This document shows, piece by piece, positions 7,288 to 62,633 of a stretch of DNA of 64,000 nucleotides. The notes beneath the pieces are model-generated. The model was given only the letters and a program-made list of their open reading frames with translations, ran no database searches and was not told the DNA's origin. The position numbers and the translations under genes are program-made. The stretch's first letter is position 1. The number at the start of each line of letters is the position of its first letter. Source of the DNA: an uncultured Candidatus Saccharibacteria bacterium (GTDB taxonomy: Bacteria > Patescibacteriota > Minisyncoccia > JAHISW01 > Tagabacteraceae); the NCBI GenBank assembly GCA_964601305.1, contig CAZRMW010000002.1, forward strand, positions 3,439 to 67,438, in the 5' to 3' direction.

Positions 7288-7415
7288 TAAACTAATTATA
7301 TCAGTTTAGTATTAATAAGGTAAAATAATAAAAACTACTATAATGTTAACAAGTTGTGTATTACCTGTGAATATTGCTTTTTAATAACTTTGTTATATAA
7401 TAAGAAAATCTAATT

Positions 7416-7550: not shown

Positions 7551-7556
7551 ATTATT

Positions 7557-8698: not shown

Positions 8699-9131
8699 AA
8701 AATTAATAGAAGATTTATTAGAGAAATTAACTATTAATGGGAGAGTAGAAACAGAAGAAACAGTGGATGGTCCACAATTTATTATAAGAACTCCAGAAGG
8801 GGGATTGCTTATTGGTGAAAATGGAAAAAATTTAATTTCTTTTAATCATTTAGTAAAAAAAATTATATCTAAAGAAAAAAATAAAGAAGATTCTTTTTCT
8901 TTTTCTTTAGATATAAATGGTTATCAAAATAAAAAAATAGAAGACTTAAAAGATATAGCCAGAGTAAATGCACAAAGAGTAAGATATTTTAAAAAAGAAA
9001 TAATTTTAAAGGCAATGTCTTCTTATGAAAGAAGAATTGTTCATATGGCACTTTCAGATTCTCCCGATATTAGCACAGATAGCATTGGACAAGAGCCAGA
9101 GAGAAAAATTGTTATAAAACCATATCTCTAA
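8673..9131 (+). CDS. jag: Jag/KhpB-like KH plus R3H RNA-binding protein
   Basis: R3H motif region (SSYERRIVHMALSD) and its position after yidC. Confidence 0.7.
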   Translation: MEEKINQIKKLIEDLLEKLTINGRVETEETVDGPQFIIRTPEGGLLIGENGKNLISFNHLVKKIISKEKNKEDSFSFSLDINGYQNKKIEDLKDIARVNAQRVRYFKKEIILKAMSSYERRIVHMALSDSPDISTDSIGQEPERKIVIKPYL

Positions 9132-10312
9132 ATATCTAAACTCCAGAGAGTAAAATCTTTTTTGTTTTGAAAGAAAAGATTGTTTTCATTCTTATCTAAA
9201 AATATATTAATAATATCTAAATTAGAATTATTATAAAGATTTTCTGTTGAACCATCTTTTAAATCTATTTTCCAAATAGAATCATTAAAAGAAATTACTC
9301 CTTTATACCAATCGTCTGGATAATAAGCGGAAGGAATAAAAGAAGGAACTGCACAAAATATTACATCTGTGTTTAATTTACTAAAGATACATTTTTCAGG
9401 TAATGTTTTATAAGACAAAATAGAGATTTTTTTATCACTAGTATTATATATTTTTGTAGAGAGCTCTTTGTTTATTGACTCACTATATATAATTTTATTG
9501 TCATTTGGGGAATGAAGAGTAGTTAACCCTTTTATACCTCCTAATAATTTTGTAAAAGAGTTATTTAAAGGATTTAATTTATATAGAAACCCATCTAAAA
9601 AAGCAGAAGGTTTTGTTTGAAGGGTAATGGTGTTTTTTTGTGGCCAATTAATTAAAAAATTACTATATTCTATTTCTAATATTTCTTTTTTGTTTTTATT
9701 TTCAAAAGTAGAAGTAAAACCAGAAGTTATAATATCTTTCAATAAATAAAATATTTTATTTTCGCTTGATGATACTGTAATTTGAGATGTGTTTAATGGT
9801 AAAAAAACACCAGATGTAGAAGTTGCCAAAGAATTTATAAGAAATGTTTTTACTTGCTCATAATTTTCTTCTTCTTTTATGTCTGTGTATTGAAGTATTA
9901 ATTTTGTAGTATCTTTGGACCAAACGGCATTAAAAATTTTAGGAATTGTATTTATACTTATTTGTTTTTTTTCTTGACCATTATTGTTTATTTCATAAAT
10001 ATGACCAGTAGATTTTTCTATATATTTTATTTTATTCCCATCAAAAACAGCTCCAACAATAGGTAAATTAATAATTTGTTTTAATTTTCCAAATTGTTGT
10101 CCTTCAGAAGTATCTTGAGTTTCTCTTTCAAATACATCGTCTATGGAAATTTGATCAAAAGAAAGTTCTTCTTCATCTGTAGGAAACAAAGTAGAGAAAA
10201 AACCTTTTTCTTCTTTTTTTTCGTCCGATGGCCACAGCAAATAAACCGAAAGAATAGTTATAATAACTAATCCTGTGACTATTCCTATTATTGTTAAATT
10301 TTTTCTAGACAT
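9128..10312 (-). CDS. T4SS-like operon gene 11: N-terminally membrane-anchored extracytoplasmic protein
   Basis: Single N-terminal TM (LTIIGIVTGLVIITILSVYLLW) followed by a large beta-rich domain; last gene of the tightly packed minus-strand operon. Confidence 0.5.
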   Translation of the reverse strand: MSRKNLTIIGIVTGLVIITILSVYLLWPSDEKKEEKGFFSTLFPTDEEELSFDQISIDDVFERETQDTSEGQQFGKLKQIINLPIVGAVFDGNKIKYIEKSTGHIYEINNNGQEKKQISINTIPKIFNAVWSKDTTKLILQYTDIKEEENYEQVKTFLINSLATSTSGVFLPLNTSQITVSSSENKIFYLLKDIITSGFTSTFENKNKKEILEIEYSNFLINWPQKNTITLQTKPSAFLDGFLYKLNPLNNSFTKLLGGIKGLTTLHSPNDNKIIYSESINKELSTKIYNTSDKKISILSYKTLPEKCIFSKLNTDVIFCAVPSFIPSAYYPDDWYKGVISFNDSIWKIDLKDGSTENLYNNSNLDIINIFLDKNENNLFFQNKKDFTLWSLDI

Positions 10313-15853: not shown

Positions 15854-17611
15854 TTATCTATATTGGTCTAATATGTTTGTTCCTTGTGGGGTGAGAGCCC
15901 AAGCCGCTGCAGATTTATTACCCGCTGTTTTTAAGGCTTGTGCTATCGTGTTAGGATCTCCCCCTAGACTATTTAAATGTTTGAACATAGTTTCAGCAGC
16001 GAAACCACCTTTGTTTGAAATATCAGAAAGCTCCTTGTTGCTAATGGTTTTTTGAAGATTACTAAGTTCGGATTGTGTAATTGTTGCTGCTCCAGCATTG
16101 TCTTTTTTTCCAAGTTTTCCAATATCTTTTCCTCTTTGTACTTTTCCATATTCTTTCTTTGTCTTTTCGAACTCTTCTATCCCTAATGCTCCAGTGTCTT
16201 TATGTGTAAGTTTGTCATAAGTTTTCTGGAAACTATCATCTGCTTCGACTAATTGCACCCTTTCTCTTGCGCTCATTTTTCTAAACATTTCGTCTCGGGC
16301 TTTTTTATCTTGTAAGCGCCCTTGCCCTAGTCTTGTTAAATACTCAGCTCTTTGTTTTGGAGAGAGAGTCATACCCCTTGCTACTAATTGATCTATTTCT
16401 TCTTTTCTTCCCCCAACCTCAGATATTTTTCTTAATCTGTCTGCTGTCCACCCACCAACAACAGGAGATCTTGCGGTGAGTTTTTCTAATTGTGGATTTA
16501 TGTATTTTTCTCCAGCTCTGGCAACAGTAGCTCTTGCTGCAAATTTACCAACATTTCCTGCATAGCCTTGGAGTTTTCCTTTAGTCCAATTTGCTGCTTG
16601 CACACCCATACTGGCACTTTTGTCTCCCATAATTTTAGCAATTTGTAGACACCCAAGCATTAAGATAATAAGAGTTACATAATTTACAAAAATTGCAGTG
16701 TTTGATGGGTCCATTATAAACCCATTAAAACCATCTTTGCTTCTGCCAAGTATTCCGTGTATTCCATTTGTAGACTCTATGGTTTTAACCACCAAATAAA
16801 ACATAAAAAGAAAGGCAGGGGCAAAGAAAGCTTGATTAAAAAGTCTTTTAAACCAGTCTTGGAAGTGTGTTTCAGTTTTTGGAAGTATGTTTGCTACAAA
16901 AGCCAAGGGAGCAAGAATCATAAGTATAGACAATACCACAGATCGTAAAATAAACATTATTCCTCCAGCAAACAAAGTGAACGCTGTTACAAGAGATATG
17001 GTGCATGCAAAAAGATAGGTTAAGATAACTCTCATCGTTGCTTGAGTTCCTGTTTGAAATGTATTTTCTGTTTTTGGAAAAACTGTCTGTGGTTCTATGC
17101 CACTAACAAAAGTTTCAGACAAACTCACATTTGCCGATGGTTTTATATTGTTGTAAAATTCTTGAGCCAAAACATTTGAGGCGCTAATAACTGTTTGGCT
17201 TATTATTAAACTAAAATTTACAAGAAGGGCTATAATAATTACTTTTACTAAAAGCTCTTTTACACCATAGCCACTAATTTGCAAAATTGTAGCAATACCA
17301 ATATATATCAAAATAAATATAAAACAGAGGTTTGCCAAATCTCTTGAAATTCTCCAACCATCTTCTACAAGACCCGAGCCTTGAAGTGCGGAGTTGTTTA
17401 TAGATACATTTATAGCTGCATCAAAGAAAAATCCAGAGGCAGCAAGAACCCAATTGCAGACAAGGAAAGCCATACTTCCGATGGCTGCGGGAAAATATGA
17501 AAATCCCTTATCAACCATATCCCAAAATCCAACAGCATGGGTAGTCTTTGGTCCTAAAAATACCCCAAGCGCAACTATAACTATTAAAATGTATGGTAAA
17601 TATTTTTTCAT
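15854..17611 (-). CDS. VirB6/TrbL-like polytopic membrane protein
   Basis: Signal peptide, more than 6 TM helices, and a long hydrophilic C-terminal domain. This is a VirB6-like topology; no sequence motif was checked. Confidence 0.5.
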   Translation of the reverse strand: MKKYLPYILIVIVALGVFLGPKTTHAVGFWDMVDKGFSYFPAAIGSMAFLVCNWVLAASGFFFDAAINVSINNSALQGSGLVEDGWRISRDLANLCFIFILIYIGIATILQISGYGVKELLVKVIIIALLVNFSLIISQTVISASNVLAQEFYNNIKPSANVSLSETFVSGIEPQTVFPKTENTFQTGTQATMRVILTYLFACTISLVTAFTLFAGGIMFILRSVVLSILMILAPLAFVANILPKTETHFQDWFKRLFNQAFFAPAFLFMFYLVVKTIESTNGIHGILGRSKDGFNGFIMDPSNTAIFVNYVTLIILMLGCLQIAKIMGDKSASMGVQAANWTKGKLQGYAGNVGKFAARATVARAGEKYINPQLEKLTARSPVVGGWTADRLRKISEVGGRKEEIDQLVARGMTLSPKQRAEYLTRLGQGRLQDKKARDEMFRKMSARERVQLVEADDSFQKTYDKLTHKDTGALGIEEFEKTKKEYGKVQRGKDIGKLGKKDNAGAATITQSELSNLQKTISNKELSDISNKGGFAAETMFKHLNSLGGDPNTIAQALKTAGNKSAAAWALTPQGTNILDQYR

Positions 17612-47684: not shown

Positions 47685-48305
47685 ATGGGAAAGAAAAATT
47701 TACCCGACAAGGCGGGAGAAAGGTCTCTTGTATTAATAAAACCTGATGGAGTTCAAAGAACTTTGATGGGAGAGATTATAAAAAGATATGAACGGACAGG
47801 ACTTAAATTAGTGGCGATGAAATTTATAGTGCCTACAGAAGAAATAGCAGAAAAACATTATTTAATAGATGATGGTTGGCTTGAAGCTGTTGGCACTAAA
47901 ACAAAAAAGGTCTATGAAGGAAAAGGAGAAAAACCTCCTTTTGAAAATCCTAAAGAAATTGGGAGGTGGGTTTTAGATAAAAATAAAAAGTTTTTAGCTT
48001 CCGGGCCTGTGGTAGCGATGATTTGGCAGGGGAATGAATCAGTAGCTATTATTAGAAAAATAACTGGTGGAACAGAACCAAGAACATCTGATGTGGGAAC
48101 AATAAGAGGAGACTTCACAATAGATTCGTACGCGATCGCAGATGGAGATAGTCGGGCTGTTAGAAATTTAGTGCATGCCTCAGGAACACCTGAAGAAGCG
48201 GAAAAAGAAATAAAAATTTGGTTTAGTGAAAATGAGATTATAAACTATCGTTTAGTTTCTGAACAAATTCTTTACGATGTAAATTTGGATGGAATTTTGG
48301 AATAG
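47685..48305 (+). CDS. ndk: nucleoside diphosphate kinase (long form with insertion)
   Basis: ERSLVLIKPDGVQR…, active-site region NLVHASGTPEEAEKEIKIWF; about 60 aa longer than typical NDKs. Confidence 0.8.
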   Translation: MGKKNLPDKAGERSLVLIKPDGVQRTLMGEIIKRYERTGLKLVAMKFIVPTEEIAEKHYLIDDGWLEAVGTKTKKVYEGKGEKPPFENPKEIGRWVLDKNKKFLASGPVVAMIWQGNESVAIIRKITGGTEPRTSDVGTIRGDFTIDSYAIADGDSRAVRNLVHASGTPEEAEKEIKIWFSENEIINYRLVSEQILYDVNLDGILE

Positions 48306-48330
48306 CTTCAAAATCGGATATTAGTTATTT

Positions 48331-48385
48331 CCTATTCTTCCTAAAATCCACGATCGTGAAAAATGGGTAGGATAGGTTTTTGGTT
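48331..48385 (+). terminator. terminator of ndk, member of a repeated terminator family (…CTAAAAYYACGATCGTGARAAAT…)
   Basis: Related copy at 62700-62756; hairpin plus T-run. Confidence 0.5.
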
Positions 48386-48608
48386 TATTTTTGTTAGTGG
48401 TATAATCAAAGTAGTTATTTGAAGATTTGTTTTTAGGTTAAATTGTTTTTCTAGGGAGTCTTATATTGGGCAGTGTCGACGGATTTGTTCTGGATATTGC
48501 TTCTGCGGGCACCCACCTGAAAAGTAGCTAAAAACACTCTTTTAAATAACTTGCCCCGCCAGGCGGGGTGAACCTCGCTCCTTGTTTTCAAGGGGCGTTG
48601 GTTTTTTT

Positions 48609-48673
48609 ACCCCCACACTTAATTTAGTAATTTTTTTGGCGCTTTGTGTCTTTGCTAAATTAAGTGTGGGGGT
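48609..48673. promoter_or_regulatory. perfect 19-bp inverted repeat ACCCCCACACTTAATTTAG…CTAAATTAAGTGTGGGGGT
   Basis: Arms at 48609-48627 and 48655-48673 with a 27-nt spacer, ending 15 nt before the RNase gene ATG. Confidence 0.6.
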
Positions 48674-48688
48674 GCTATACTAATCACA

Positions 48689-50056
48689 ATGACAAACAAG
48701 GCTAAACTTACATTTTATGGTGGAGCTCAAGAGGTAACGGGTGCAAATCATCTTCTGGAGACAGAAGGCAAAAAAATTCTTATAGATTGTGGGCTTTTTC
48801 AAGGTACGCCAAAAAATGAGGAAAAAAATTATGAAAAATTTGCTTATGACCCTAAAAGTATCGATATACTTTTAATTACTCATGGGCACTTAGATCATAT
48901 TGGTAGAATACCAAAATTAGTAAAAGAAGGTTTTTCTGGAAAGATATATTCGACTCCAATTACAAGAGATACTTCAAGACTTTCTTTGGAAGATAGTGTA
49001 AAGCTACTCACAAAAGAAGCTACAAGAGAAGACAAACAATCAATTTACAAAACAGAAGATGTAGAAAAATCTTTTTCTCTCTGGGAAACTTTTGAGTACG
49101 ACAAAGAGATTGTTTTTAACAATTTAAAAATTATTCCTAGAGATGCTGGGCACATACTCGGTTCTACAATGTATGAGATAATTTCTACAAGTGGCAAAAA
49201 AATTGTTTTTACAGGAGATCTTGGCAATCCACCCGTGCCGCTTTTAAGAAAGACATATAAAATAACAGAAGCAGATTATTTAGTAACAGAAAGTACTTAT
49301 GGAGACAAAGAGCATGAGGGAGCAAAAGAGAGAAAAATAAAAATAGAGCGAGCTATAGAAGATGTGGTAAAAAGCAAAGGTACTCTTATGATCCCAGCTT
49401 TTTCAATTGAGCGTACACAACAGCTTCTCTTCGAAATAAACGAGCTTGTAGAAAATGGACGGATACCACAGCTTCCGATTTTTTTGGACAGTCCACTGGC
49501 AATAAAAATCACTGAAGTCTATAAAAAATACGAAAGTTATTTTAATAAAAAAACTAAAGACATAATAAAATCTGGAGATGATATATTCAATTTTCCTGGT
49601 TTGCAACTTACCCGGACTGCTGAAGAATCTAAAAACATAAACAATGTTTCCGCGCCGAAAGTAATAATTGCTGGTTCAGGTATGTCTACCGGTGGAAGAA
49701 TTGTACATCACGAAAAGAAATATTTGCCAGACTCAAACAGTATCTTGCTTTTGGTGGGGTATCAGGCTGCGGGTTCTTTGGGGAGAAAATTGGAGGACGG
49801 TGCTAAATGGGTAAAAATTTTCAGAGAAGATGTGCCTGTAAAAGCAAAAATAGAATCTATAAAAGGATATTCTGCACATCCAGATATAAATAAACTTTTT
49901 GATTTTGTGGAAACAGCATCAAAAAATTTAAAAAAAGTTTTTGTAGTGCAGGGCGAGACAAAGGCTTCTTTGTTTTTTACACAAAGGATTAGGGATTATC
50001 TTGGTATAGATGCGGTTGCGCCAAAAATTGGAGATTCATTCGAGCTTGAGCTATAA
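48689..50056 (+). CDS. MBL-fold beta-CASP family ribonuclease (RNase J-like)
   Basis: LIDCGLFQG…ITHGHLDHIG (MBL motifs) plus beta-CASP and C-terminal RNA-metabolising MBL region. Confidence 0.65.
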   Translation: MTNKAKLTFYGGAQEVTGANHLLETEGKKILIDCGLFQGTPKNEEKNYEKFAYDPKSIDILLITHGHLDHIGRIPKLVKEGFSGKIYSTPITRDTSRLSLEDSVKLLTKEATREDKQSIYKTEDVEKSFSLWETFEYDKEIVFNNLKIIPRDAGHILGSTMYEIISTSGKKIVFTGDLGNPPVPLLRKTYKITEADYLVTESTYGDKEHEGAKERKIKIERAIEDVVKSKGTLMIPAFSIERTQQLLFEINELVENGRIPQLPIFLDSPLAIKITEVYKKYESYFNKKTKDIIKSGDDIFNFPGLQLTRTAEESKNINNVSAPKVIIAGSGMSTGGRIVHHEKKYLPDSNSILLLVGYQAAGSLGRKLEDGAKWVKIFREDVPVKAKIESIKGYSAHPDINKLFDFVETASKNLKKVFVVQGETKASLFFTQRIRDYLGIDAVAPKIGDSFELEL

Positions 50057-50064
50057 TATAAAAC

Positions 50065-50661
50065 ATGAACAAAATAAAGAAAATAAAACCATCGGAGCAT
50101 TCTCATATGAAGTTTAAGGTCTGTATTTCTGGTGCAGCAGAAACAGGGCATTGTAAAGATCCGAACACTTTAGAACTTGCAAAGGAGTTGGGTAAAGAAA
50201 TAGTAAGGCAAAATGGCGTGCTGGTAACAGGTGCAACAACAGGGTTTCCTTTTTGGGCAGCAATTGGAGCCAAAGAAGAGGGAGGGATTTCAATAGGTGT
50301 TTCCCCTGCATTTTCTGAAAAGGAGCATATAGAAAAATACAAGTTGCCTGTAGATTATTTCGATATGATTATGTATACCGGGCACGGGTATTCTGGCAGG
50401 AATCTCCTGCTTACAAGGATCTCAGACGCTGTGATTGTAGGATGCGGAAGAATAGGAACTGTAAACGAGTTTACGATTGCTTTTGAGGATGATAAGCCAA
50501 CAGGAGTACTAAAAGGAGAATGGGCGACAGATGAAGTGATAGAACATATTATAAAAGAGGGGCACAGGCCAAATGAAAAAGTTGTTTATGATACTAATCC
50601 AAAAACTCTCGTTAAAAAAGTTATAGAGCTTGTTCGAGAAGAAAAGGTAATAGAAATATAG
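50065..50661 (+). CDS. LOG/TIGR00725-like (SLOG) Rossmann-fold protein
   Basis: VCISGAAETG…VLVTGATTGFPFWAAIGA…AVIVGCGRIGTVNEF. Confidence 0.5.
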   Translation: MNKIKKIKPSEHSHMKFKVCISGAAETGHCKDPNTLELAKELGKEIVRQNGVLVTGATTGFPFWAAIGAKEEGGISIGVSPAFSEKEHIEKYKLPVDYFDMIMYTGHGYSGRNLLLTRISDAVIVGCGRIGTVNEFTIAFEDDKPTGVLKGEWATDEVIEHIIKEGHRPNEKVVYDTNPKTLVKKVIELVREEKVIEI

Positions 50662-50665
50662 AAAA

Positions 50666-51802
50666 ATGTATAAGTTTTTTGAGGGTATGGGTATCGTTGT
50701 TGGTCTAATGTTTGGTGCAGGTGTTTTTGCTTTACCTTTTGCAATAGCGCAGTCTGGTATTTTGTGGGGAATTGTTCATTTAATAATCGCTCTGACACTT
50801 ACTCTGTTTTTACTTTTTCTGTATTCTGGTGTTTGTTATTTCACAGAAGGAAAACATCGGTTTACTGGGTACACAGGGTTAATTTTAGGCAAGAGAGCTA
50901 AGTTTTTTTCTTTTTTAGTTACCATGGCGGCATACTATGGTTCGCTTCTTATATATATAGTGCTTGGTGGATTATTTCTTTCTAATTTTTTTACTAGTTT
51001 CTCTTCCTTTTATTTTACCTTGATCTTCTTTGGTGCTGGTGCGTTTTTTCTTCTTCTAAATTTAGAAAAAATTGCTTGGATAAACCTATACCTTACAATT
51101 CCTTTGTTGGGTTTTGTACTCTATCTTTTGTTTTCAGCATTGCCTTTTATTGAGCTTAATAATTTTCCATTAACTCTAAATGGCTTTACCACTAAGGGAT
51201 TATGGTTTTTACCCTATGGTGTGTGGCTTTTTTCTTTAGGAGCATTTGCTGCTATACCAGAACTTAAAGATATATATGCGAAGGATTCTATAAAAAAATT
51301 TAAAAAAGTTATTTTGGTAGGTGTTGTATTATCGGCATTCTTTTATTTGATGTTTGTTTTCTCGATAGTTGGTGTGAGTGGAATAAATACTACAAAAGAT
51401 GCTTTTTCTGGAGTTTTGCCAGCGTTGGGTCCGCAAGTTATAGCAATAGGGTCTTTGATGGGGTTTTTGGCCGTATTTACTTCTTTTTTAGCTTTAGGTG
51501 TGGATATGAGGGGGATATTTAGATATGATTTTGGTTTTTCTAAGTATTTAGCCTGGTTTTTGGTGGTTTTTCCTCCTGTTTTTCTGTTTTTATTAGGTTT
51601 TCAGGATTTTACCTTAATTTTGGGCTTGGTTGGAACTGTCGGGATGGGTTTTACTGGGATATTTGTGATTTTAATGGCTAAAAAATTGAGAGAAAGGGGG
51701 GTAATCACAGATGGGATAAAACTTAGTAAGACCAAGGAGTTTTTGGCTTCTTTGGCTCTTTTGTCGGCTGTTTTTTACGAAATATACAGTCTTTTATTTT
51801 AG
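50666..51802 (+). CDS. amino-acid permease-like transporter (aromatic amino acid/HAAAP-like)
   Basis: 10-11 TM helices; N-terminal GLMFGAGVFALPFAIAQSG typical of Trp/Tyr permease family. Confidence 0.5.
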   Translation: MYKFFEGMGIVVGLMFGAGVFALPFAIAQSGILWGIVHLIIALTLTLFLLFLYSGVCYFTEGKHRFTGYTGLILGKRAKFFSFLVTMAAYYGSLLIYIVLGGLFLSNFFTSFSSFYFTLIFFGAGAFFLLLNLEKIAWINLYLTIPLLGFVLYLLFSALPFIELNNFPLTLNGFTTKGLWFLPYGVWLFSLGAFAAIPELKDIYAKDSIKKFKKVILVGVVLSAFFYLMFVFSIVGVSGINTTKDAFSGVLPALGPQVIAIGSLMGFLAVFTSFLALGVDMRGIFRYDFGFSKYLAWFLVVFPPVFLFLLGFQDFTLILGLVGTVGMGFTGIFVILMAKKLRERGVITDGIKLSKTKEFLASLALLSAVFYEIYSLLF

Positions 51803-53154: not shown

Positions 53155-53607
53155 ATGCCTACTTTATTAAACAACAAAAGAGCAGATTTTGATTATGAAG
53201 TATTAGAAAAGTTTGATGCAGGAATCAAGCTTCTTGGTTTTGAAGTAAAATCTTTAAAAATGAAGAGAGGAAACCTTACTGGCTCTCATATAATCATCAG
53301 GGGAGAAGAAGCATATATGGTAGGTATGGAAATACCGCCATACCAGCCAAAAAATACTCCTACAGACTATGATTCAGCGCAGACTAGAAAACTTTTACTC
53401 ACAAAAAAAGAAATAAAATATTTAGATGGTAAAGACAGCCAAAAAGGATTAACCTTGATACCATTGACTATTTATACAAAAAATGGTTTAATAAAAGTAT
53501 CTTTTGCAGTAGCAAAAGGGCAAAAAAGATACGACAAAAGAGAAAAAATAAAAGAACGTGAATCAAAAAGAGATATAGAACGTAAATTGAAATCACAGAA
53601 TATATAA
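53155..53607 (+). CDS. smpB: SsrA-binding protein
   Basis: FDYEVLEKFDAGIKLLGFEVKSL…TRKLLLTKKEI…VAKGQKRYDKRE matches SmpB; immediately precedes the tmRNA. Confidence 0.85.
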   Translation: MPTLLNNKRADFDYEVLEKFDAGIKLLGFEVKSLKMKRGNLTGSHIIIRGEEAYMVGMEIPPYQPKNTPTDYDSAQTRKLLLTKKEIKYLDGKDSQKGLTLIPLTIYTKNGLIKVSFAVAKGQKRYDKREKIKERESKRDIERKLKSQNI

Positions 53608-53954
53608 GGGAGTGATCGGCTTTGATAAGAAGCTTCTTTTAAAACAGTGCATATCGAGTATTCTAAAATCTCGTTAAACTTTTAGAGCTTCAAATAAATG
53701 CAAATTTATTTAAAACTCCAGCTTTAGCTTACGCTTAAAGCTCGTTCCCTTACTCATTCTCAATAAGTAAGGAAGAACGTCATCATTGAGATAGATAATT
53801 TTTATTGGGCTTTGAAAAATTATTGAAACAAAACAAAGCCAAAGCTAAGAACTTTTTGCTCGGTTTTTATTTCTTAGTCTAAACAAACCAAGCTAAATAT
53901 GTAGATACTTTTTAAAAATCTTTTTACACGGCGGTTCGATTCCGCCCACTTCCA
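53608..53954 (+). ncRNA. ssrA: tmRNA (transfer-messenger RNA)
   Basis: 5' GGGAGTG pairs with 3' CACTTCC including G3:U70; T arm GGCGG-TTCGATT-CCGCC. PK1 region CAGTGCATATCGAG resembles E. coli GGUGCAUGCCGAG. Tag ORF gca aat tta ttt aaa act cca gct tta gct tac gct taa encodes ANLFKTPALAYA (53700-53738); the GCTTTAGC core is conserved. CCA is not encoded. Confidence 0.85.
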
Positions 53955-54377
53955 CAAAATATTAATTCCCGAAGCGTTAGCTTTGGGGATTTTGATTTTG
54001 TAGGTTGGTGGCGGAATTGAACAGGCGGAGGCGGGCACCGTCGCCGACTAGCGAAGCTAGTGGCGCGCGGTCGCCGAGCCCGGGGAGGAAGTTCTTAGTG
54101 AAGACAAGTGCAAAGCACGAAGTCTGAGCTTAGAAACTTGACCCTCGATTCCGCCCACTTCCACAAAATATTAATTCCCGAAGCGTTAGCTTTGGGGATT
54201 TTGATTTTGTAGGTTGGTGGCGGAATTGAACAGGCGGAGGCGGGCACCGTCGCCGACTAGCGAAGCTAGTGGCGCGCGGTCGCCGAGCCCGGGGAGGAAG
54301 TTCTTAGTGAAGACAAGTGCAAAGCACGAAGTCTGAGCTTAGAAACTTGACCCTCGATTCCGCCCACTTCCACAACT
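53937..54377 (+). repeat. 209-bp tandem repeat (2.1 copies) beginning inside the last 18 nt of ssrA
   Basis: CGATTCCGCCCACTTCCACAA recurs at 53937, 54146 and 54355 with identical 188-bp GC-rich spacers. Confidence 0.9.
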
Positions 54378-54526: not shown

Positions 54527-55465
54527 ATGGGTACGCCAAAAGAATTATTTCCACCGACAATTGCAAGAAAAATTGAATTACTCGAGTTTGGCAGAAAAAC
54601 AGGGAAAAGGTTAGATGTGAATGACTTTGCAGATGTTCTTGAAGAAACAGCGAAAACTATTCTTCCGCTTGTACCGTGGTTGGATAAACAGGTTTTCAAC
54701 AAGACCTTTGTTAAAAGGCACGATGTACCAGAAAAATACAGAAGAAAAAGGGGCTTGTTTTTATTTAGAGAAAGAGGTGTTGTAAGTGTTTATCTTCAAC
54801 GTTCAGGGAAATGGTTTTTGTGTTTCAATGACACTTTTCTATCAATATTTAATAATCCGTGTTCTATTTTTTGTGAAATCAACTCAGAGTTGTTCGCTAT
54901 GGTTTTTTGGGAACACTCAAAATATTTTTTAAGCAAAGGTGGAAGATTGGTTGAAAAAGAAGCTCCTTTTATGAAAGATATCTTTCTTTATCACGACATA
55001 GTCCTTAATTTTGTTTCTCAATGTTTTGAATCGATAAGAAAACTGATCGAAGAAAAAGAAAAGAGAATCAATACAATGAAAGATTGGATGAATTTGGGCA
55101 TTGATTTTTCTGAATCTCTTGACCCGCTGACTTCCACAGATAAAGAGATAGAAGTTGAGAGATTTTGCATGTGGAAAGACGAGATAAAAGGCCCAAGAAG
55201 AAGCCGGCTAACTGGTTCTTATTTTTGTCCGAAAGCCCTAGATTTGTTTTGGGAAAGTGTTAAAGATAGAAAACACATAGGAGATGGTTGGGATGTTGAA
55301 CAGACCGACATAGACACTTTTTCTCCAGAATCCTTGCAGAGATTTTTAGAAAAGATTTATTGGAATTTTGAAGAAGCAGAAAAGGAAAATGTGCTTGGCA
55401 GGGGGCCAATAACGGATTCTGAAATAGAAGTTTTGAAAAAAGTTGTTGAATCCTTGAAAAAATAG
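54527..55465 (+). CDS. hypothetical protein (cargo of the tmRNA-adjacent segment)
   Basis: 312 aa; SD AAAAAGGAG; no recognisable motifs; GC content is somewhat above the local average. Confidence 0.5.
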   Translation: MGTPKELFPPTIARKIELLEFGRKTGKRLDVNDFADVLEETAKTILPLVPWLDKQVFNKTFVKRHDVPEKYRRKRGLFLFRERGVVSVYLQRSGKWFLCFNDTFLSIFNNPCSIFCEINSELFAMVFWEHSKYFLSKGGRLVEKEAPFMKDIFLYHDIVLNFVSQCFESIRKLIEEKEKRINTMKDWMNLGIDFSESLDPLTSTDKEIEVERFCMWKDEIKGPRRSRLTGSYFCPKALDLFWESVKDRKHIGDGWDVEQTDIDTFSPESLQRFLEKIYWNFEEAEKENVLGRGPITDSEIEVLKKVVESLKK

Positions 55466-55475
55466 GATTTTTTAT

Positions 55476-55513
55476 AAAAAAGCGAAGCTCTGCGGAGTCT
55501 CGCTTTTTATATT
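55476..55513 (+). terminator. terminator AAAAAGCGAAGCTCTGCGGAGTCTCGCTTTTT, copy 1
   Basis: Near-identical copy at 56050-56088. Confidence 0.6.
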
Positions 55514-55773
55514 TGCATTAAAATTTGCATCGAATTTAAATATTTTCAAAACCTACTCTAACTAGTGCTATCACCTCAGTTAGAGTAGGTTTTAAACTGT
55601 CTCGCTAATTCAGCTATAGCAGTTTTAAGTAGATAGTATTAAGAGCATAGTATTAAGAGCATGGAATTTCAAATATTAATTGGTTTACGATTGCAAAAAA
55701 TTGACAAATAATAAAATTAGTGATATGTTGCTACCAACAGAAAATTAAAAATAAAATAAGGAGGACAGCTCGA

Positions 55774-56016
55774 ATGAAAAAAAATGCAAGGATAACACTT
55801 GAGAAAATAAGGAAATACTACGAAAAAAGAAAAAAAACTTCTGATCGTTTTGATTCTTTCGTTAGTGGAATTTGGTTGGCAACAAATGAAAAAGCTAAGT
55901 TAACAGAAAATCAAGAAGGTAATTTATGGGGGATAATGATGTCCCTCCATTCAGAAGAAAATCTGACGGTTTTGGATGAAATAACTGTTGCTACTTGGAT
56001 TAATTCTTGTCGTTAA
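55774..56016 (+). CDS. hypothetical 81-aa protein
   Basis: SD AAGGAGG before the ATG at 55774; followed by the duplicated terminator. Confidence 0.45.
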   Translation: MKKNARITLEKIRKYYEKRKKTSDRFDSFVSGIWLATNEKAKLTENQEGNLWGIMMSLHSEENLTVLDEITVATWINSCR

Positions 56017-56049
56017 GATTTAATGTTCCCATATTTGACCTATCTCTCA

Positions 56050-56088
56050 AAAAGCGAAGCTCTGTGGGGCCTCGCTTTTTTATATTGA
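56050..56088 (+). terminator. terminator AAAAAGCGAAGCTCTGTGGGGCCTCGCTTTTTT, copy 2
   Basis: Hairpin plus T-run. Confidence 0.6.
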
Positions 56089-56159
56089 CTAATTTAAATA
56101 TATGTATATAATGGTAAATAAGAATAAGAGGCCGAAGGGCCTTTTAAAAATGATTTAAA

Positions 56160-56345
56160 ATGTTTACAAAATTAGTCAATTATTTAAAGGGTACAAAATC
56201 AGAGCTTGGCTCTGTAAACTGGCCTACAAAAAATCAAACAATTAATTCTACATTGTTAGTAATTGGTTTTTCTTTGTTCATTGCATTTTTTTTGGGATTT
56301 TTTGATAAAATTTTTACATTTTTACTAAAAACATTTGTTTTATAA
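56160..56345 (+). CDS. secE: preprotein translocase subunit SecE
   Basis: 61 aa with a single C-terminal TM (LLVIGFSLFIAFFLGFFD); directly upstream of nusG. Confidence 0.75.
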   Translation: MFTKLVNYLKGTKSELGSVNWPTKNQTINSTLLVIGFSLFIAFFLGFFDKIFTFLLKTFVL

Positions 56346-56348
56346 AAT

Positions 56349-56963
56349 ATGGCAGAGGAAATAAAAAAGAAAAAAGAGAAAAGAGAAATTTCTGAGCAAG
56401 ATACTCCTAATGAAATAAATAAACAAGGAGGTGAGGAGGAAGGTAGGGCTTGGTATGCTCTGCACACATATTCTGGATACGAAGATGCAGTTGTTAGAAA
56501 TCTTAAACAAAGAATAGAATCTTTGGGAATGGAAGATAAAATTTTTAATGTAATAGTACCAACGGAGAAAAAAATAAAAATAAGAGCAGGTAAAAGAAAA
56601 GTAGTTGAAGAAAAGCTTTATGCGGGGTATGTTTTGGTAGAGATGGTTGTTACCCACGATTCTTGGTATGTTGTAAGAAATACGCCAAGGGTAACAGGTT
56701 TCGTTGGTTCTGGTACCGTACCGCTTCCTTTAGAAAAAGAAGAAATAGACGGATTGTTTAAGAGAATGGGTGTTAAGGAGCCAAAATACAAATTGGATGT
56801 TGTAGTCGGAGAGTCTGTTAAAATTACAGATGGTCCATTTAAAGATTTTGAAGGAAGAGTAGAAAGTACAGATGAGGAAAGAGGAAAGATAAAAGTACTT
56901 GTTTCTATGTTTGGTAGGGAAACTCCTGTAGAATTAGACTTTTTGCAGGTAAAGAAAATTTAA
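56349..56963 (+). CDS. nusG: transcription antitermination factor NusG
   Basis: NGN domain (WYALHTYSGYEDAV) and C-terminal KOW (VVGESVKITDGPFKDFEGRV). Confidence 0.85.
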   Translation: MAEEIKKKKEKREISEQDTPNEINKQGGEEEGRAWYALHTYSGYEDAVVRNLKQRIESLGMEDKIFNVIVPTEKKIKIRAGKRKVVEEKLYAGYVLVEMVVTHDSWYVVRNTPRVTGFVGSGTVPLPLEKEEIDGLFKRMGVKEPKYKLDVVVGESVKITDGPFKDFEGRVESTDEERGKIKVLVSMFGRETPVELDFLQVKKI

Positions 56964-56972
56964 ATTTTAAAC

Positions 56973-57164
56973 ATGTCACAGAAAACAAACAAATCATATA
57001 GTAAAAGACTCAAAGTTACCAAAAATGGTAAGGTTGTTCAGCGCAGACCTGGTATGGGGCATTTTAATGCCAAAGAAGAAAGAAAAGGGCAGTTAAAGAA
57101 AAAAAGAACAAAACATTTTAATATTTCAAGTAAAACATTAAGCGGATTTATACCGCACGAATAA
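56973..57164 (+). CDS. rpmI: 50S ribosomal protein L35
   Basis: 63-aa basic protein with a KR.K.T..GK…H… pattern; adjacent to rplT. Confidence 0.65.
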   Translation: MSQKTNKSYSKRLKVTKNGKVVQRRPGMGHFNAKEERKGQLKKKRTKHFNISSKTLSGFIPHE

Positions 57165-57168
57165 AAAA

Positions 57169-57534
57169 ATGGTTAGAATAAAAAGAGGTACAATTTCATT
57201 AAAGAGGAGAAGAAACGTTTTAAAACAAACGAAGGGTTATAAGTGGGGAAGGAAGTCTAAAGAAAGGGCAGCTAAAGAAGCAATTTTTCATGCAGCTACT
57301 CATGCCTTTCAAGACAAAAGAAAAAAGAAAAGAGTTTTTAGAAAATTGTGGCAGATAAAAATAAATGCAGCTGTTCGTCCGCTAGAGGTTTCTTACAGTA
57401 GGTTTATAGACATGCTTAAAAAAGCTGAAGTTGGTTTGGATAGAAAAATATTGTCGCAATTAGCAGAGCACAAACCAGAAGTTTTTAAAAAAGTTGTTGA
57501 AGAGGTAACCCCGCCGAGCGGGGCAAGAAAATAA
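57169..57534 (+). CDS. rplT: 50S ribosomal protein L20 (C-terminal tail encoded by the palindrome)
   Basis: MVRIKRGTISLKRRRNVLKQTKGY…RKLWQIKINAAVR matches L20; the last codons (…TPPSGARK) read through CCCCGCCGAGCGGGG at 57509-57523. Confidence 0.85.
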   Translation: MVRIKRGTISLKRRRNVLKQTKGYKWGRKSKERAAKEAIFHAATHAFQDKRKKKRVFRKLWQIKINAAVRPLEVSYSRFIDMLKKAEVGLDRKILSQLAEHKPEVFKKVVEEVTPPSGARK

Positions 57535-57543
57535 AATAAAATT

Positions 57544-58062
57544 TTGAAGAGACCAAAAATAAACAACGAAATAAGAGCAAAAGAAGTCCGTTTAATAGAT
57601 GAAGAGAAAGGAGATTTAGGGGTTTTTGAAATTTCAAAAGCTATAGAAATGGCGCAAGGGAAGGGGTTGGATTTAATAGAAATTTCAGCAAAGGTAAAAC
57701 CTCCTATTGCTAAAATGATGGATTTTGGTAAGTTTTTATATAAAGAAAAAAGAAAACAGAGAGATGCAGCCAAAAAATCGAGTGGATCGGAAATGAAAAG
57801 TGTAAGGATTGGGCTTGGTACATCTGGAAAAGATTTAGAGTTAAAGGCAAAAAAAGCCTCGGAATTTATAAAAGAAGGGAACAGAGTAAGAGTGGAGCTT
57901 TTTTTAAGAGGAAGAGAAAAATATTTGGATAAAGATTTTTTGAAGGAGAGATTAGAAAGGGTAATAAATTTAATAACTGAAGAGCATAAAACTTTGCAAG
58001 AAATTAGAAAAGGTCCACGAGGAATATTTACTATTATAGAAAAACATGGCAAAAGCAATTAA
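57544..58062 (+). CDS. infC: translation initiation factor IF-3 (non-AUG start: TTG at 57544 or ATT at 57541)
   Basis: [34 protein letters not shown]… matches the IF3 N- and C-terminal domains; no in-frame ATG is available. Confidence 0.8.
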
Positions 58063-58468
58063 AACAATTTTTAAGATTCAAATTCCTGCAGGAAAAGCTG
58101 CACCAGCTCCTCCTATTGGTCCAGTTTTGGGTCAGCATGGTGTTAATATTGGAGATTTTGTAAGTAGATTCAACGATGCTACCAAAGAAATGGGGAGCGA
58201 TATTGTTCCAGCAGAAGTGACAGTTTATGAAGACAGGACTTTTGATTTTAAGCTTAAAACACCGCCTGCATCGGATCTTCTTAGAAAAGCTGCTGGTATC
58301 GAGAAGGGTTCTGGTAAACCAAATGTAAAAAAAGCAGGAAGTGTTAGTAAAGATCAAATAAAAGAAATTGCTGAGCGCAAAATGGAAGATTTAAATGCAA
58401 ACGATGTAGATGCTGCAATGAAGATTGTTGAAGGTACTGCGCGTTCAATGGGTATTGATGTAAAGTAA
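58046..58468 (+). CDS. rplK: 50S ribosomal protein L11
   Basis: [25 protein letters not shown]…TARSMGI matches L11. Confidence 0.9.
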
Positions 58469-58494
58469 TTTAAGACTTTTTTAAACAGAAAACG

Positions 58495-58514
58495 AAATCT
58501 CGCCAGAGGCGAGT
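58495..58514. repeat. hairpin repeat AAATCTCGCCAGAGGCGAGT, copy 2
   Basis: Identical to 20265-20284; downstream of rplK. Confidence 0.6.
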
Positions 58515-58544
58515 GAACTTTGAAAATATTTAGGGGGATATGAA

Positions 58545-59096
58545 ATGAAGAAACAAGTAGAGCGTCTTTCAAAAGAAGATTATCAGCGAATGATAACTTT
58601 TTTTGTTGCAACCCGTGGTACTTGTGATCGTTTGAGAGCTGCCACCACTTTGTGGGATGAAGTAGGTAGAATGATATCGATAGGCTATAATGGTTCACCA
58701 CCAGGTGATTTACATTGCGATGAAAAAGGTCATTTATTGGTTGACGATCACTGTATAAGAACAATTCACGGTGAAAGAAATGCCATTTTTAATACGGTTA
58801 ATCTAAAAAAACTCAAAAGTGCTACTGCGCGCATGTTGGGTACGCCTTGTTATAATTGTGTGAAGGATTTAGTTACCAATGGAATAATTACCATCGATAT
58901 TCTTAGTCCATACAACAACTCGCTAGGAATAGAAAATGTTGAAGATTTATGTAGACGTAAGAATGTAAAACTTATATTTACTAAATTTGATTTTGTAAAA
59001 GTTTTACAACAATCTGTTGATTTTTTGCAGGGACCTGGTGGACCACTTAAAGACTTGCAAGATATTCAAGTTAAATACAAAGGAGAAAATAAATGA
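58545..59096 (+). CDS. deoxycytidylate (dCMP) deaminase, ComEB family
   Basis: Zinc-binding motifs HGERNAI and PCYNCVK. Confidence 0.75.
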   Translation: MKKQVERLSKEDYQRMITFFVATRGTCDRLRAATTLWDEVGRMISIGYNGSPPGDLHCDEKGHLLVDDHCIRTIHGERNAIFNTVNLKKLKSATARMLGTPCYNCVKDLVTNGIITIDILSPYNNSLGIENVEDLCRRKNVKLIFTKFDFVKVLQQSVDFLQGPGGPLKDLQDIQVKYKGENK

Positions 59097-59824
59097 TAGA
59101 CGAAAGAACGAACTATGTTGAAGGAAGAAGAATTGACGATGTGTGGCGTGACGCAATGTGGTTGTGTATAAAAAACGGTTGGGATTTTGTTGTGAAGGGC
59201 GGAAGTTACAAGGGGCAGATAAGAAAACAATTATCGAGGGCACAGTTAGTTATTACAGACCCAGGAGAAAGACCACTTACTCCTTTTATGCCTCCAAATT
59301 TGGATCCAACAACTTCTGAGGAAGAAATAGAAAAATATTTTTTGACGTATTTAATGAATGATGTACCAGAGCCCGGAGAGCAGTATACTTATGGAACATT
59401 TATAAAACCACAATTACCAAAAATAATCGATATTTTGATAAAAGCAGAGGGGAACACAAATCAGGCGTGTATAAGTGTTGGAGATAAAGAGTCTCCATTT
59501 CTTGACGATCCTCCGTGTTTACGCATGGTTGATTTTAAAGTTGTCGAGAGAAAATTAGAGATGACGGTATTTTTTCGTTCTTGGGATTTGTATGCTGCAC
59601 TACCTCAAAATCTTGGCGGACTACAAATGTTAAAAGAATATGTGCTTGTAAATTTGCAAAACCATTTTGATGTTGAAGATGGTCCACTAATTGCTTATAG
59701 TAGTGGTCTTCATATCTATGAACAATATTTTAAAATAGTAGATATGTTAAATGTAGACAAAATAAAAATAGGAGTACAGGCGATAAAAGATAAAGAAAAA
59801 TTTCTTTCTGAAAAAGGTATTTAA
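59093..59824 (+). CDS. thymidylate-synthase-family protein (divergent ThyA-like)
   Basis: DPPCLRMVDF (compare ThyA PPCH with the catalytic Cys) and FFRSWDLYAALPQNLGGL (compare ThyA Q.YQRS.D..LG.PFNI); shorter than typical ThyA; overlaps the dCMP deaminase gene by 4 nt. Confidence 0.5.
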   Translation: MIDERTNYVEGRRIDDVWRDAMWLCIKNGWDFVVKGGSYKGQIRKQLSRAQLVITDPGERPLTPFMPPNLDPTTSEEEIEKYFLTYLMNDVPEPGEQYTYGTFIKPQLPKIIDILIKAEGNTNQACISVGDKESPFLDDPPCLRMVDFKVVERKLEMTVFFRSWDLYAALPQNLGGLQMLKEYVLVNLQNHFDVEDGPLIAYSSGLHIYEQYFKIVDMLNVDKIKIGVQAIKDKEKFLSEKGI

Positions 59825-59865
59825 ATTAAAAAAAGCGTGCTCGCGTGAAATGCGAGGACGCTTTT

Positions 59866-60726
59866 TTACTTGTGGCCTTCTATATATTCAAGAGCTACTC
59901 TTAAGGCATCTTCATTTTCTTTTACTAAAATGTCTGGAACAATCTTGTTTTTACCGCTTTGATATTTTAACTCTGATGTTGTAATAGATATCTTAAAACC
60001 ATCTTTTATCTTATAAAAATCACTTTGGGTAAGATTTTTCCCAAAACTAGGCGTGCCTATAACAACACCTCTTTTAGTTCTTTGAATAACATCCGCAAAA
60101 ATTTCTGCAGCACTTGCTGTGCGACTATTGATTAAAACGAAAATCTTATGTTTCAAAAAAGCAGGAGACCGTGTAATGTACCCAGAAGCTCTTTTTGTTT
60201 TCGTGAAGATTATATTTTCTCCAGGAGGCAAAAAAAGATCTAATAATCTAGAAGCATTGAGTATAAAACCTCCATAGTTGTCTCTCAAATCAAAAACAAT
60301 AGTCTTTATTTTTTTATTTTTTTTAAGTAATCGTTTTATTTTTTCTTCTATTGGATAATTAAAGTCTGAGATTTTTGTAATATAGATCTCGTTTATAATA
60401 ATATTACTAATAAAAGATTGTTTTCTTGCTGGTGTTGCTTCTTTGTTTATTGTAAGTTTGTTATTTTTTATCGAAATTGTCGCGTAAGGATCTATTTTTC
60501 TGAATTCTTTTAAAAATCCAATCATAGCGGCTATCTTTAGCTTTTTCTTTTGTTCTTCACTTAGATTTTTAAGTCCATTTTTATCTATTATATCTAATGT
60601 CCTTTCAACTACACCAGAAACTTCGAAACTTATAAGAGGTTTGTTTAATCTTGATATACCTACAAAAACTCCAATAATCAAAAAAATGAGAAATATTAAC
60701 AAAGGATTAATTTTTATCTTTTTCAT
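59866..60726 (-). CDS. S41-family (C-terminal processing) peptidase, membrane-anchored
   Basis: N-terminal TM; VFDLRDNYGG…LINSRTASAAEIFADVIQ (S41 catalytic region). Confidence 0.7.
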   Translation of the reverse strand: MKKIKINPLLIFLIFLIIGVFVGISRLNKPLISFEVSGVVERTLDIIDKNGLKNLSEEQKKKLKIAAMIGFLKEFRKIDPYATISIKNNKLTINKEATPARKQSFISNIIINEIYITKISDFNYPIEEKIKRLLKKNKKIKTIVFDLRDNYGGFILNASRLLDLFLPPGENIIFTKTKRASGYITRSPAFLKHKIFVLINSRTASAAEIFADVIQRTKRGVVIGTPSFGKNLTQSDFYKIKDGFKISITTSELKYQSGKNKIVPDILVKENEDALRVALEYIEGHK

Positions 60727-60871
60727 GAGATACTCCTCTTGTTTTTCAAAGTTTACTTGCCTTTGGCAAGGTTCTCTGTTTTAACTGTCTCACAGTTTGG
60801 ATGTTTTTGCTAGCATATGGTATTTTTATAAAAAACAAAGCAATTTTTGACAACAAAATAAGGAGTTCAAA

Positions 60872-61579
60872 ATGTTTATAGTTATTGAAGGTACAGATGG
60901 TACAGGGAAAACGACCCAGTTTAATAAGCTAAAAGAAAAATTGACACAAGAAGGACATAGTGTTGCGGTTTTTGATTTTCCTCAGTATGGAAATCCTTCA
61001 GCTTTTTTTGTGGAAAAATACTTGAATGGTAGATATGGAAGTGCTGATGATGTTGGGCCAAAAAGAGCATCCGTTTTTTACGCAGTTGATCGTTTAGACG
61101 CTTCTTTTAAGATTAAAGAAGCTCAAAAATTAAGAAAGATTTGTTTGTCCAATAGATATGTTGGGTCAAACATGGGGCATCAGGGCGGAAAAATTAAAAA
61201 TGAACAAGAGTTGATAAATTTTTTGGTATGGGTACAAAACTTTGAGTATGGATTAATGGGGATTTCAAAGCCAGATGTTTCAATTATTTTGCATATGCCG
61301 GCAAAGGTTGCACAAACACTGGTTGATAAAAAAGGAGAGAGGGAATATATAGGTGGCAAAAAAAGAGATATTCATGAAGATTCTTTGAGTCATCTTCAAA
61401 ATGCAGAAAAAACTTATTTAAAAATAGCCGAACTGTTTCCGAATGATTTTGTCGTCGTTGAGTGTTTTGAAAATGGAAGAATTTTGTCTGAAGAAGAAAT
61501 CCACGAAAAAATTTATAGCATTGTGAAAAAATTCCTGAAGGTAAGGAGGGAAAGATATGAAAATAACAGAAGAAGATAG
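60872..61579 (+). CDS. tmk: thymidylate kinase
   Basis: P-loop IVIEGTDGTGKTTQ, DRLDAS (DRY-like) and lid region. Confidence 0.8.
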   Translation: MFIVIEGTDGTGKTTQFNKLKEKLTQEGHSVAVFDFPQYGNPSAFFVEKYLNGRYGSADDVGPKRASVFYAVDRLDASFKIKEAQKLRKICLSNRYVGSNMGHQGGKIKNEQELINFLVWVQNFEYGLMGISKPDVSIILHMPAKVAQTLVDKKGEREYIGGKKRDIHEDSLSHLQNAEKTYLKIAELFPNDFVVVECFENGRILSEEEIHEKIYSIVKKFLKVRRERYENNRRR

Positions 61580-62633
61580 TTGTAAAATATATACAGGAAA
61601 TGATCATAAAAAAAAGAAAACAAGAATTATTTGGGCAACTGGTTTACCTTGTAATGGACGAAAAAAAATTTTAAGGGCATGGAAAAAACAAGCTAAAGAA
61701 AAGAAAAAAAATGTCGAAGTTTTTTATGTTGGAGATATGATGAAAGAGCAAGGAAGAACTATTCAAAGAACATGGCCCTCAAGAAATGTTTTGCGAGTAG
61801 CTTCACGATTTTTAGATGAAAGAAAATCTGCTGTCTTTGAAAAAATTCTTAAAAACATTGCAGAAAATTTTTATGATACAGTTGTTATAGTAGACCATTT
61901 AAATTTTCTTTGGGATAACGATTTTTTGGAAGCTCATGCTTCTTTTTCTTATATTCCAGTTGTTCAACCAGATGTTTTTGTTTGTTTTGTAGATGGTCCA
62001 GAAATTATTTCAAAAAGGTTAGCAAAAAACGATATGTGGAAGACACAATCTTTAAGGGCTCAGAACATTATTCTTTGGCAAAGTTCCGAGATAATGCTCA
62101 CAAAGAGTTTGGCAGAATCTCAGAGAAAAAGATGGATAATACTTCCTACAGGAGAGGAAAAGGAAGTTTTTTATGAGATAGCAAAAGATCCAGATGTAGA
62201 ATTGTTTTATATTATGATACCGATTACACACTTACTTGGGAAAGAAGGGGAAGAGGGGAGAAAAAAAGTAGATGATCTTATAAGAATGGTAAAAAAGGCG
62301 TACCCAGCAATGATCAATCCATATACCCTCCCCGTCGGCGACATAAAGATTGCTGGTTATTCAGAAAAATTAAGAGCCATTCATGATCATGTGTTAAATT
62401 TAAACGAAAGATTTATGAATCAGGCGGGCAGTGGAATCGTGCTTATGCCTGACAAGATTCCAAGTGATGGTGTAGGTTATGAACAACCAACAATGTCTCA
62501 AGCGGGAAAGGATGTTTTTACATTTTATCCTCACGATAAAGCAGGTCCACACAAAGCTCGATTTTCGACAAAAATATTTAAAACAATGGAAGAAATGGTT
62601 GAATTTCTTGAAAAAAAAGCTCATCCTGAATAA
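61557..62633 (+). CDS. hypothetical protein (overlaps tmk by 23 nt); possible nucleotide-kinase-like N-terminal region
   Basis: 358 aa; weak P-loop-like IIWATGLPCNGRKK; no confident family. Confidence 0.35.
   Translation: MKITEEDSCKIYTGNDHKKKKTRIIWATGLPCNGRKKILRAWKKQAKEKKKNVEVFYVGDMMKEQGRTIQRTWPSRNVLRVASRFLDERKSAVFEKILKNIAENFYDTVVIVDHLNFLWDNDFLEAHASFSYIPVVQPDVFVCFVDGPEIISKRLAKNDMWKTQSLRAQNIILWQSSEIMLTKSLAESQRKRWIILPTGEEKEVFYEIAKDPDVELFYIMIPITHLLGKEGEEGRKKVDDLIRMVKKAYPAMINPYTLPVGDIKIAGYSEKLRAIHDHVLNLNERFMNQAGSGIVLMPDKIPSDGVGYEQPTMSQAGKDVFTFYPHDKAGPHKARFSTKIFKTMEEMVEFLEKKAHPE

Follow-up and report, generated by a model that had tools for sequence, protein, structure and literature searches.

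A secE-nusG-rpmI-rplT-infC-rplK locus lacking rplA: two conserved ribosomal clusters rejoined in a small clade of Paceibacteria

The window analyzed here, a stretch of 64,000 nt of contig CAZRMW010000002.1, comes from a tiny-genome bacterium of the Parcubacteria/Paceibacteria type within the candidate phyla radiation (CPR); its nearest L11, IF3, and NusG relatives among the matches listed are labeled Parcubacteria group, Paceibacterota, Pacebacteria, or Patescibacteria. Between positions 56160 and 59824 it carries eight co-oriented genes on the + strand (secE, nusG, rpmI, rplT, infC, rplK, a dCMP deaminase gene, and a ThyA-like gene), so that rpmI, rplT, and infC, encoding L35, L20, and IF3, stand between nusG and rplK, and rplK, encoding L11, is not followed by the L1 gene rplA. 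The gene names and the order secE-nusG-rpmI-rplT-infC-rplK given in the initial annotation hold, in identity and in coordinates, against Pfam and TIGRFAM profiles, and Pfam/NCBIfam matches are well over threshold for all the ribosomal and translation genes except L35: secE (56160-56345; PF00584, E = 2.4e-16), nusG (56349-56963; TIGR00922, 203 bits against a cutoff of 136), rplT (57169-57534; TIGR01032, 116 bits), infC (from a TTG at 57544 or an in-frame ATT at 57541 to 58062; TIGR00168, 134 bits), and rplK (58046-58468; TIGR01632, 189 bits). The rpmI gene (56973-57164) encodes a divergent L35 of 63 amino acids that scores 27.6 bits against PF01632, just below the cutoff of 28.9, and its assignment is based on the basic pattern of the family, the neighboring rplT, and the same L35 call in all relatives. 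The six genes from secE to rplK are packed with gaps of -17 to +9 nt, namely 3 nt between secE and nusG, 9 nt between nusG and rpmI, 4 nt between rpmI and rplT, 6-9 nt between rplT and infC, and a 17-nt overlap of infC with rplK. After a 76-nt spacer (58469-58544, + strand), which is the site of rplA in L1-bearing relatives and holds a weak hairpin without a + strand U-run, the dCMP/cytidine deaminase-family gene (58545-59096), preceded by a strong GGGGG ribosome-binding motif, and the ThyA-like gene (59093-59824) follow. The product of the latter matches PF00303 with 25.6 bits and most closely resembles the model for thymidylate synthases of the methanogen type, TIGR03283 (E = 6e-21, below cutoff).

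The canonical bacterial orders, secE-nusG-rplK-rplA(-rplJ-rplL) and infC-rpmI-rplT, were correctly stated in the initial annotation. Like the first of these clusters, the window has secE and nusG adjacent and rplK downstream on the same strand, but it has three genes between nusG and rplK, no rplA, and no leader before rplK, and rplJ and rplL are unlinked. Like the second, it keeps the three genes contiguous and co-oriented, with a non-ATG infC start and with smpB-ssrA nearby as in canonical relatives, but the order is rotated to rpmI-rplT-infC, and no Rfam match to an L20 leader was found in 55400-59200. The downstream context of deaminase, thyA, tmk, argS, and ileS is shared with non-rearranged relatives; one of them, locus L012, reads secE-nusG-L11-deaminase-ThyA-argS-ileS, with the same right-hand context rplK-deaminase-thyA-argS-ileS, and thus equals the window minus the insertion.

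The insertion of rpmI-rplT-infC is rare, young, and confined to a small clade whose IF3 proteins are at least ~61% identical. In a scan with L11 over one genome per species, which returned at least 80 loci at 57-76% identity that were annotated by phmmer, nusG and rplK are no more than 1 kb apart in 74/74 species-level loci having both genes among the matches listed, and in none of these 74 is rpmI, rplT, or infC found near nusG/rplK. An IF3 protein search combined with contig look-ups sorted the closer relatives into three classes. The contiguous type, with the gene order of the window, occurs in L120 (IF3 identity 71%), L127 (63%), L121 (62%), and L088, a range of 62-71%. A split type, in which the same genes are distributed over two opposed strings, is found in L126 (62%) and L128 (61%). 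The canonical order smpB-ssrA-infC-rpmI-rplT is present in L131 (59%), L124 (57%), L125 (55%), L122 (53%), and L123 (51%, Giovannonibacteria). The nusG-rpmI junction is common to the window, L088, L120, L121, L126, L127, and L128, and both it and infC-rplK are present throughout the clade, the rplT-infC junction being restricted to the contiguous type. In a tree of IF3+L35+L20, the rearranged genomes form a single, well-bootstrapped clade apart from the canonical genomes. Two contigs at 69% identity emerged from a metagenome scan with IF3: one reads nusG-rpmI-rplT-infC-rplK, and the other, shorter one shows the infC-rplK junction; the remaining matches, at 46% identity or less, carry canonical infC-(rpmI)-rplT or infC alone.

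The genes flanking the rearranged segment bear on the order in which the two types arose. With arrowheads giving gene orientation, L126 reads permease> UDG> PolX> rplT< rpmI< nusG< secE< smpB> ssrA> RNHCP> infC> rplK> deaminase> thyA> argS>, and L128 reads beta-CASP> LDcluster4> MgtC> permease> x> rplT< rpmI< nusG< secE< ssrA< smpB< infC> rplK> deaminase> thyA> tmk>. Flipping the segment [rplT..smpB] of L126 gives PolX> ssrA< smpB< .. secE> nusG> rpmI> rplT> infC> rplK>, which is exactly the arrangement of L121 and L127, smpB orientation included. The same flip in L128 gives the window: NDK> beta-CASP> LDcluster4> permease> .. smpB> ssrA> .. secE> nusG> rpmI> rplT> infC> rplK> deaminase> thyA>. 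In the window, smpB (53155-53607, + strand; PF01668) marks the left end of this segment [smpB-ssrA-secE-nusG-rpmI-rplT], which is found in both orientations among the relatives, and is followed by ssrA, the gene for the transfer-messenger RNA (tmRNA; 53608-53957, + strand; tag peptide ANLFKTPALAYA; identified by ARAGORN and by Rfam RF00023 with 115 bits). In the canonical outgroups, rplT is followed by the convergent genes LDcluster4< beta-CASP< DUF2238< NDK< (L122, L125) or lies near PolX< (L123). This outgroup flank of rplT is kept in the split type, with L128 resembling L122/L125 and L126 lying near PolX as in L123. In the contiguous loci, on the other hand, these LDcluster4/beta-CASP/NDK or PolX flanks adjoin smpB instead; for example, the block of the window encoding NDK, a beta-CASP/RMMBL nuclease, an LDcluster4 protein, and a Trp/Tyr permease (47685-51802, + strand; labeled from Pfam and synteny) adjoins the smpB side, whereas its counterparts in canonical and split relatives adjoin rplT. 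Since the rplT flank is kept in the split type and moved in the contiguous type, the shortest path is split first and contiguous second.

As a whole, these observations are best explained, and we think likely so, by a recombination of two conserved operons through two inversions after an older, separate deletion of rplA. According to this scheme, rplA would have been deleted from its place between rplK and the dCMP-deaminase gene in a much earlier ancestor of the large L1-lacking group, and only later, in the small clade, would secE-nusG-rplK and (smpB-ssrA-)infC-rpmI-rplT have recombined. The starting point would have been a head-to-head ancestor, rplT< rpmI< infC< ssrA< smpB< secE> nusG> rplK>. 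A first inversion with breakpoints at nusG-rplK and infC-rpmI would have created both new junctions at once, and its predicted product is the split arrangement rplT< rpmI< nusG< secE< smpB> ssrA> infC> rplK>, surviving in two relatives. A second inversion, of the segment [smpB-ssrA-secE-nusG-rpmI-rplT], would have placed rplT before infC to give the contiguous string. A single inversion makes exactly two new junctions, so nusG-rpmI and infC-rplK are explained by one event, and inverting [infC..nusG] of the postulated ancestor gives L126 gene for gene. The two operons also shared a neighborhood in relatives, as argS adjoins smpB-infC in L123 and L124. The broader statement, that inversions joined both operons in a small clade after L1 loss, is more secure than the two-inversion route specifically, which we favor by a modest degree; the direction and number of the inversions and the head-to-head ancestor are inferred.

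Several observations weigh against this route. The predicted head-to-head ancestor was not found in the nearest canonical relatives (L124, L131) or upstream of secE in L012, where there is no smpB within 1.2 kb, and what lies past smpB in the canonical relatives is ftsH, argS, a glutaredoxin gene, or a PALP-domain gene, in no case secE. The segment and smpB occur in all four possible combinations of their orientations, so that at least one inversion has recurred. Inverted repeats sought at both ends of the segment that flips, in the window, L121, L126, L127, and L128 amounted only to AT-rich chance matches, and a site-specific or repeat-mediated inversion is therefore unsupported. Neighbor-joining trees of IF3+L35+L20 and of SecE+NusG+L11 support the monophyly of the clade and do not settle the branching within it, and the polarity is consequently drawn entirely from flank synteny.

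Some of these points would equally suit a history in which the contiguous order came first, the infC-rpmI-rplT block having been transposed between nusG and rplK and then rotated, for example through tandem duplication and random loss, with the split types arising by later inversions. In favor of such a sequence, the contiguous loci are commoner (five lineages versus two), a single inversion converts either type into the other, the trees allow either branching order, and the head-to-head ancestor required by the inversion model has not turned up. Yet more events are needed, the universality of both novel junctions in the clade is left unexplained, and the adjacency of rplT to LDcluster4/beta-CASP/NDK and to PolX in the split types would have to be re-created by chance; moreover, no duplicated remnants of infC, rpmI, or rplT were seen in these loci. 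We regard a contiguous-first history as unlikely.

The absence of rplA from the locus is, by comparison, an old, broad, and already documented trait, and L1 loss and operon fusion are two separate events of very different age. The initial annotation had described rplK as followed by the deaminase and ThyA-like genes without an intervening rplA, and this is borne out both by the 76-nt spacer, which leaves no room for rplA or an rplA pseudogene, and by negative L1 searches. A tblastn search of the window with three reference L1 proteins had a best E of 3 and found no L1. A hidden Markov model (HMM) was built from 39 L1 proteins of related loci (17 CPR-like) and the three reference L1 proteins; it returned nothing at E<10 among the stop-to-stop open reading frames (ORFs) of at least 35 amino acids, either of the window or of L129, a 69-kb sequence assembled independently for this organism and extending ~4 kb beyond the window. 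Among the 80 matches listed in the L11 scan, L1 lies directly 3' of rplK on the same strand in all 39 L1-bearing loci (22 non-CPR and 17 CPR-like), and 41 loci, all CPR-like, have no L1 within the available 1.2-6 kb downstream; all nearest relatives of the window among the matches listed belong to the latter. The same downstream context is found with L1 (L11-L1-deaminase in the CPR loci L025, L034, and L061; L11-L1-tmk-deaminase-ThyA in L074) and without it (L11-deaminase in L012, L016, L033, L038, L083, and the window), and rplA was therefore cleanly excised.

Placement by ribosomal proteins, which the initial annotation had suggested together with the link between missing L1 and a Parcubacteria subgroup, agrees with this, as the L11 tree nests the window inside the L1-less set, which includes the Nealsonbacteria loci L038 and L048. 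The literature, closed genomes included, points the same way. A large Parcubacteria group, OD1-L1, was described as lacking rpL1 (Brown et al. 2015, as cited in PMC5220378), and L1 loss in a Parcubacteria group was reconfirmed on ~1000 CPR genomes (Jaffe et al. 2020, PMC7304191) and confirmed on complete CPR genomes (Tsurumaki et al. 2022, bioRxiv 10.1101/2022.01.07.475337); a closed Nealsonbacteria genome of 1.16 Mb is without L1. An altered or reduced L1 stalk (23S rRNA helices 76-78) has been reported for some L1-lacking lineages, and loss of L1 and loss of helix 78 do not always coincide (Tsurumaki et al., bioRxiv 10.1101/2022.01.07.475337); the window contains no rRNA gene. Like OD1-L1, the window has Parcubacteria/Paceibacteria relatives, lacks rplA after rplK, and nests among L1-less loci including Nealsonbacteria. 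On the other hand, the published trait is silent on the infC-rpmI-rplT insertion, which most L1-less relatives do not have, and OD1-L1 lacks L1 genome-wide, whereas in the organism studied here the absence is known for ~68 kb. The earlier caution that local order cannot prove genome-wide absence thus stands.

An rplA gene that was moved elsewhere in the genome, making the missing L1 a local change of order, would be compatible with the extent of the search, which covered the 64-kb window and ~4 kb beyond it and leaves room for such a gene; this counts against a genome-wide loss, as does the fact that rplJ and rplL are also absent from the locus, the classical rplKAJL cluster having already been split in CPR. 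Yet the invariable position of L1 behind rplK in the L1-bearing relatives, the nesting of the window among the 41 L1-less loci of the same scan, and the documented genome-wide absence of L1 in such Parcubacteria, complete genomes included, all argue against relocation. L10 and L12 never follow L1 in the 17 CPR-like L1-bearing loci among the matches listed, so L1 travels with L11, and its departure together with rplJL is unlikely. We consider relocation very improbable and a genome-wide loss of rplA in the source organism correspondingly highly likely. An artefact of chimeric assembly or of binning, a concern for any sequence derived from metagenome assemblies, can be dismissed with near certainty as the source of the gene order. 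Independently assembled contigs of several samples (L001-L006, L129, L130) and related species show the order again: the same junctions are present on no fewer than eight independent contigs that differ in sample and assembler, the order is found in four further species with IF3 62-71% identical, and the reading frames abut or overlap at every junction.

The fused locus is probably expressed as a single transcription unit from ~56085 to ~59830, as suggested by motif content. The region's best match to a sigma-70-like promoter (TTGACT, 16-nt spacer, TATAAT; 11/12) lies at 56085-56112 on the + strand, no + strand terminator-like site was found between the genes from secE to the ThyA-like gene, and a strong bidirectional intrinsic-terminator hairpin follows the latter at 59829-59867 (both strands; -23.7 kcal/mol, z = -6.7), which together lead us to infer one unit from secE to the ThyA-like gene; a point against it is that the promoter, a consensus match, and the terminator are calls from pattern matching. 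In the putative 5' leader of secE, between the promoter match and the start codon, a stable hairpin with a U-run (56125-56146, + strand; -13.3 kcal/mol, z = -4.0) may act as a leader stabilizer or attenuator. A search of 55400-59200 against Rfam at a permissive threshold (E<=5) yielded neither a ribosomal leader nor any other credible RNA. The 3' end of rplT contains a GC-rich hairpin, CCCCGC-CGA-GCGGGG (57509-57523; -11.4 kcal/mol for the 49-nt stretch 57498-57546), encoding a C-terminal extension of L20 of ~6-7 amino acids that is lacking in relatives; at this rplT-infC junction it may be the remnant of a captured terminator.

The control circuits of the parent operons would be affected to different degrees by the fusion. 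In model bacteria, L1 represses translation of the L11 operon; in E. coli, L20 represses rpmI-rplT through an upstream RNA, Firmicutes having an L20 leader, and IF3 autoregulates its own translation through the unusual start codon of infC. In the window, rpmI starts so close behind nusG that an L20-binding leader would not fit, rplK starts inside infC and so has no leader before it, and without rplA there is no L1 repressor. The infC start, on the other hand, is non-ATG in 11/11 lineages compared (the window, L088, and L120-L128), being TTG or ATT in the window and mostly TTG, with CTG and ATC in outgroups, among the 10 relatives. Control through the start codon is self-contained, which may explain why infC tolerates relocation. 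It is tempting to go further and to view the fusion as a regulatory replacement, in which L11, left without feedback control by the loss of L1, became translationally coupled to the start-codon autoregulation of IF3; rplK is joined to the 3' end of infC throughout the clade, by the 17-nt overlap in the window and with gaps of 1-43 nt in relatives. In addition, the segment beside ssrA, with all four orientation combinations represented, appears to flip repeatedly and would then be an inversion hot spot that switches infC-rplK from a promoter of its own to read-through from the secE promoter and back. This reading as a whole is speculative and in our opinion improbable.

Further features were noted around the locus. 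The final 22 nt of the tmRNA gene (TCGATTCCGCCCACTTCCACAA) are present three times in 53936-54375, bounding two exact 209-nt units with a markedly GC-rich core in a genome of ~33% GC; L129 and L001, from the same organism, have a single unit. Rfam gave no match to these units, which may represent the att-site remnant left by an element that had integrated at ssrA, an unknown small RNA, or a polymorphism in copy number. A 36-nt terminator-like hairpin element occurs twice (55473-55508 and 56049-56084, 81% match), flanking a small ORF of unknown function (55720-56016) directly upstream of the secE promoter. Behind rplK, the dCMP deaminase, ThyA-like, and tmk genes form a dTMP-synthesis cluster (58545-61579), also present in L121, L126, and L128. 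The form of ThyA varies in these relatives, with 283 amino acids and a PF00303 (Thymidylat_synt) domain in L121, 219 amino acids in L128, and a 479-amino acid fusion with a PterinBD-DUF4346 domain in L126. Between tmk and argS, a 358-amino acid protein without a Pfam match (61557-62633) is shared with relatives, including L038, and is represented by two tandem paralogues in L120 (3708-5835). In L129, argS and ileS enclose a toxin-antitoxin pair of a ribbon-helix-helix (RHH) antitoxin and a HigB-like toxin (16859-17341), ~3 kb past the right end of the window. At positions 6001-10000 the G+C content of the window is 23-24%, compared with 30-38% elsewhere in it.

Together, these data show that the fused operon is a real, rare, and clade-restricted variant of two highly conserved operons and not a new kind of system. 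The absence of L1 adds nothing new in itself and places the organism in a group with a documented L1-less ribosome. What is new is that two bacterial clusters commonly regarded as near-invariant have been cut and rejoined at nusG-rplK and infC-rpmI and that a putative intermediate and the final arrangement both survive in related genomes, which provides a natural example of inversions remodeling conserved ribosomal operons without opening a major question. The nusG-rpmI and infC-rplK junctions offer a simple synapomorphy for a small clade of Paceibacteria, and the locus provides a test case for the autogenous control of ribosomal proteins once the L1 regulator and the L20 and L1 leader contexts are gone.

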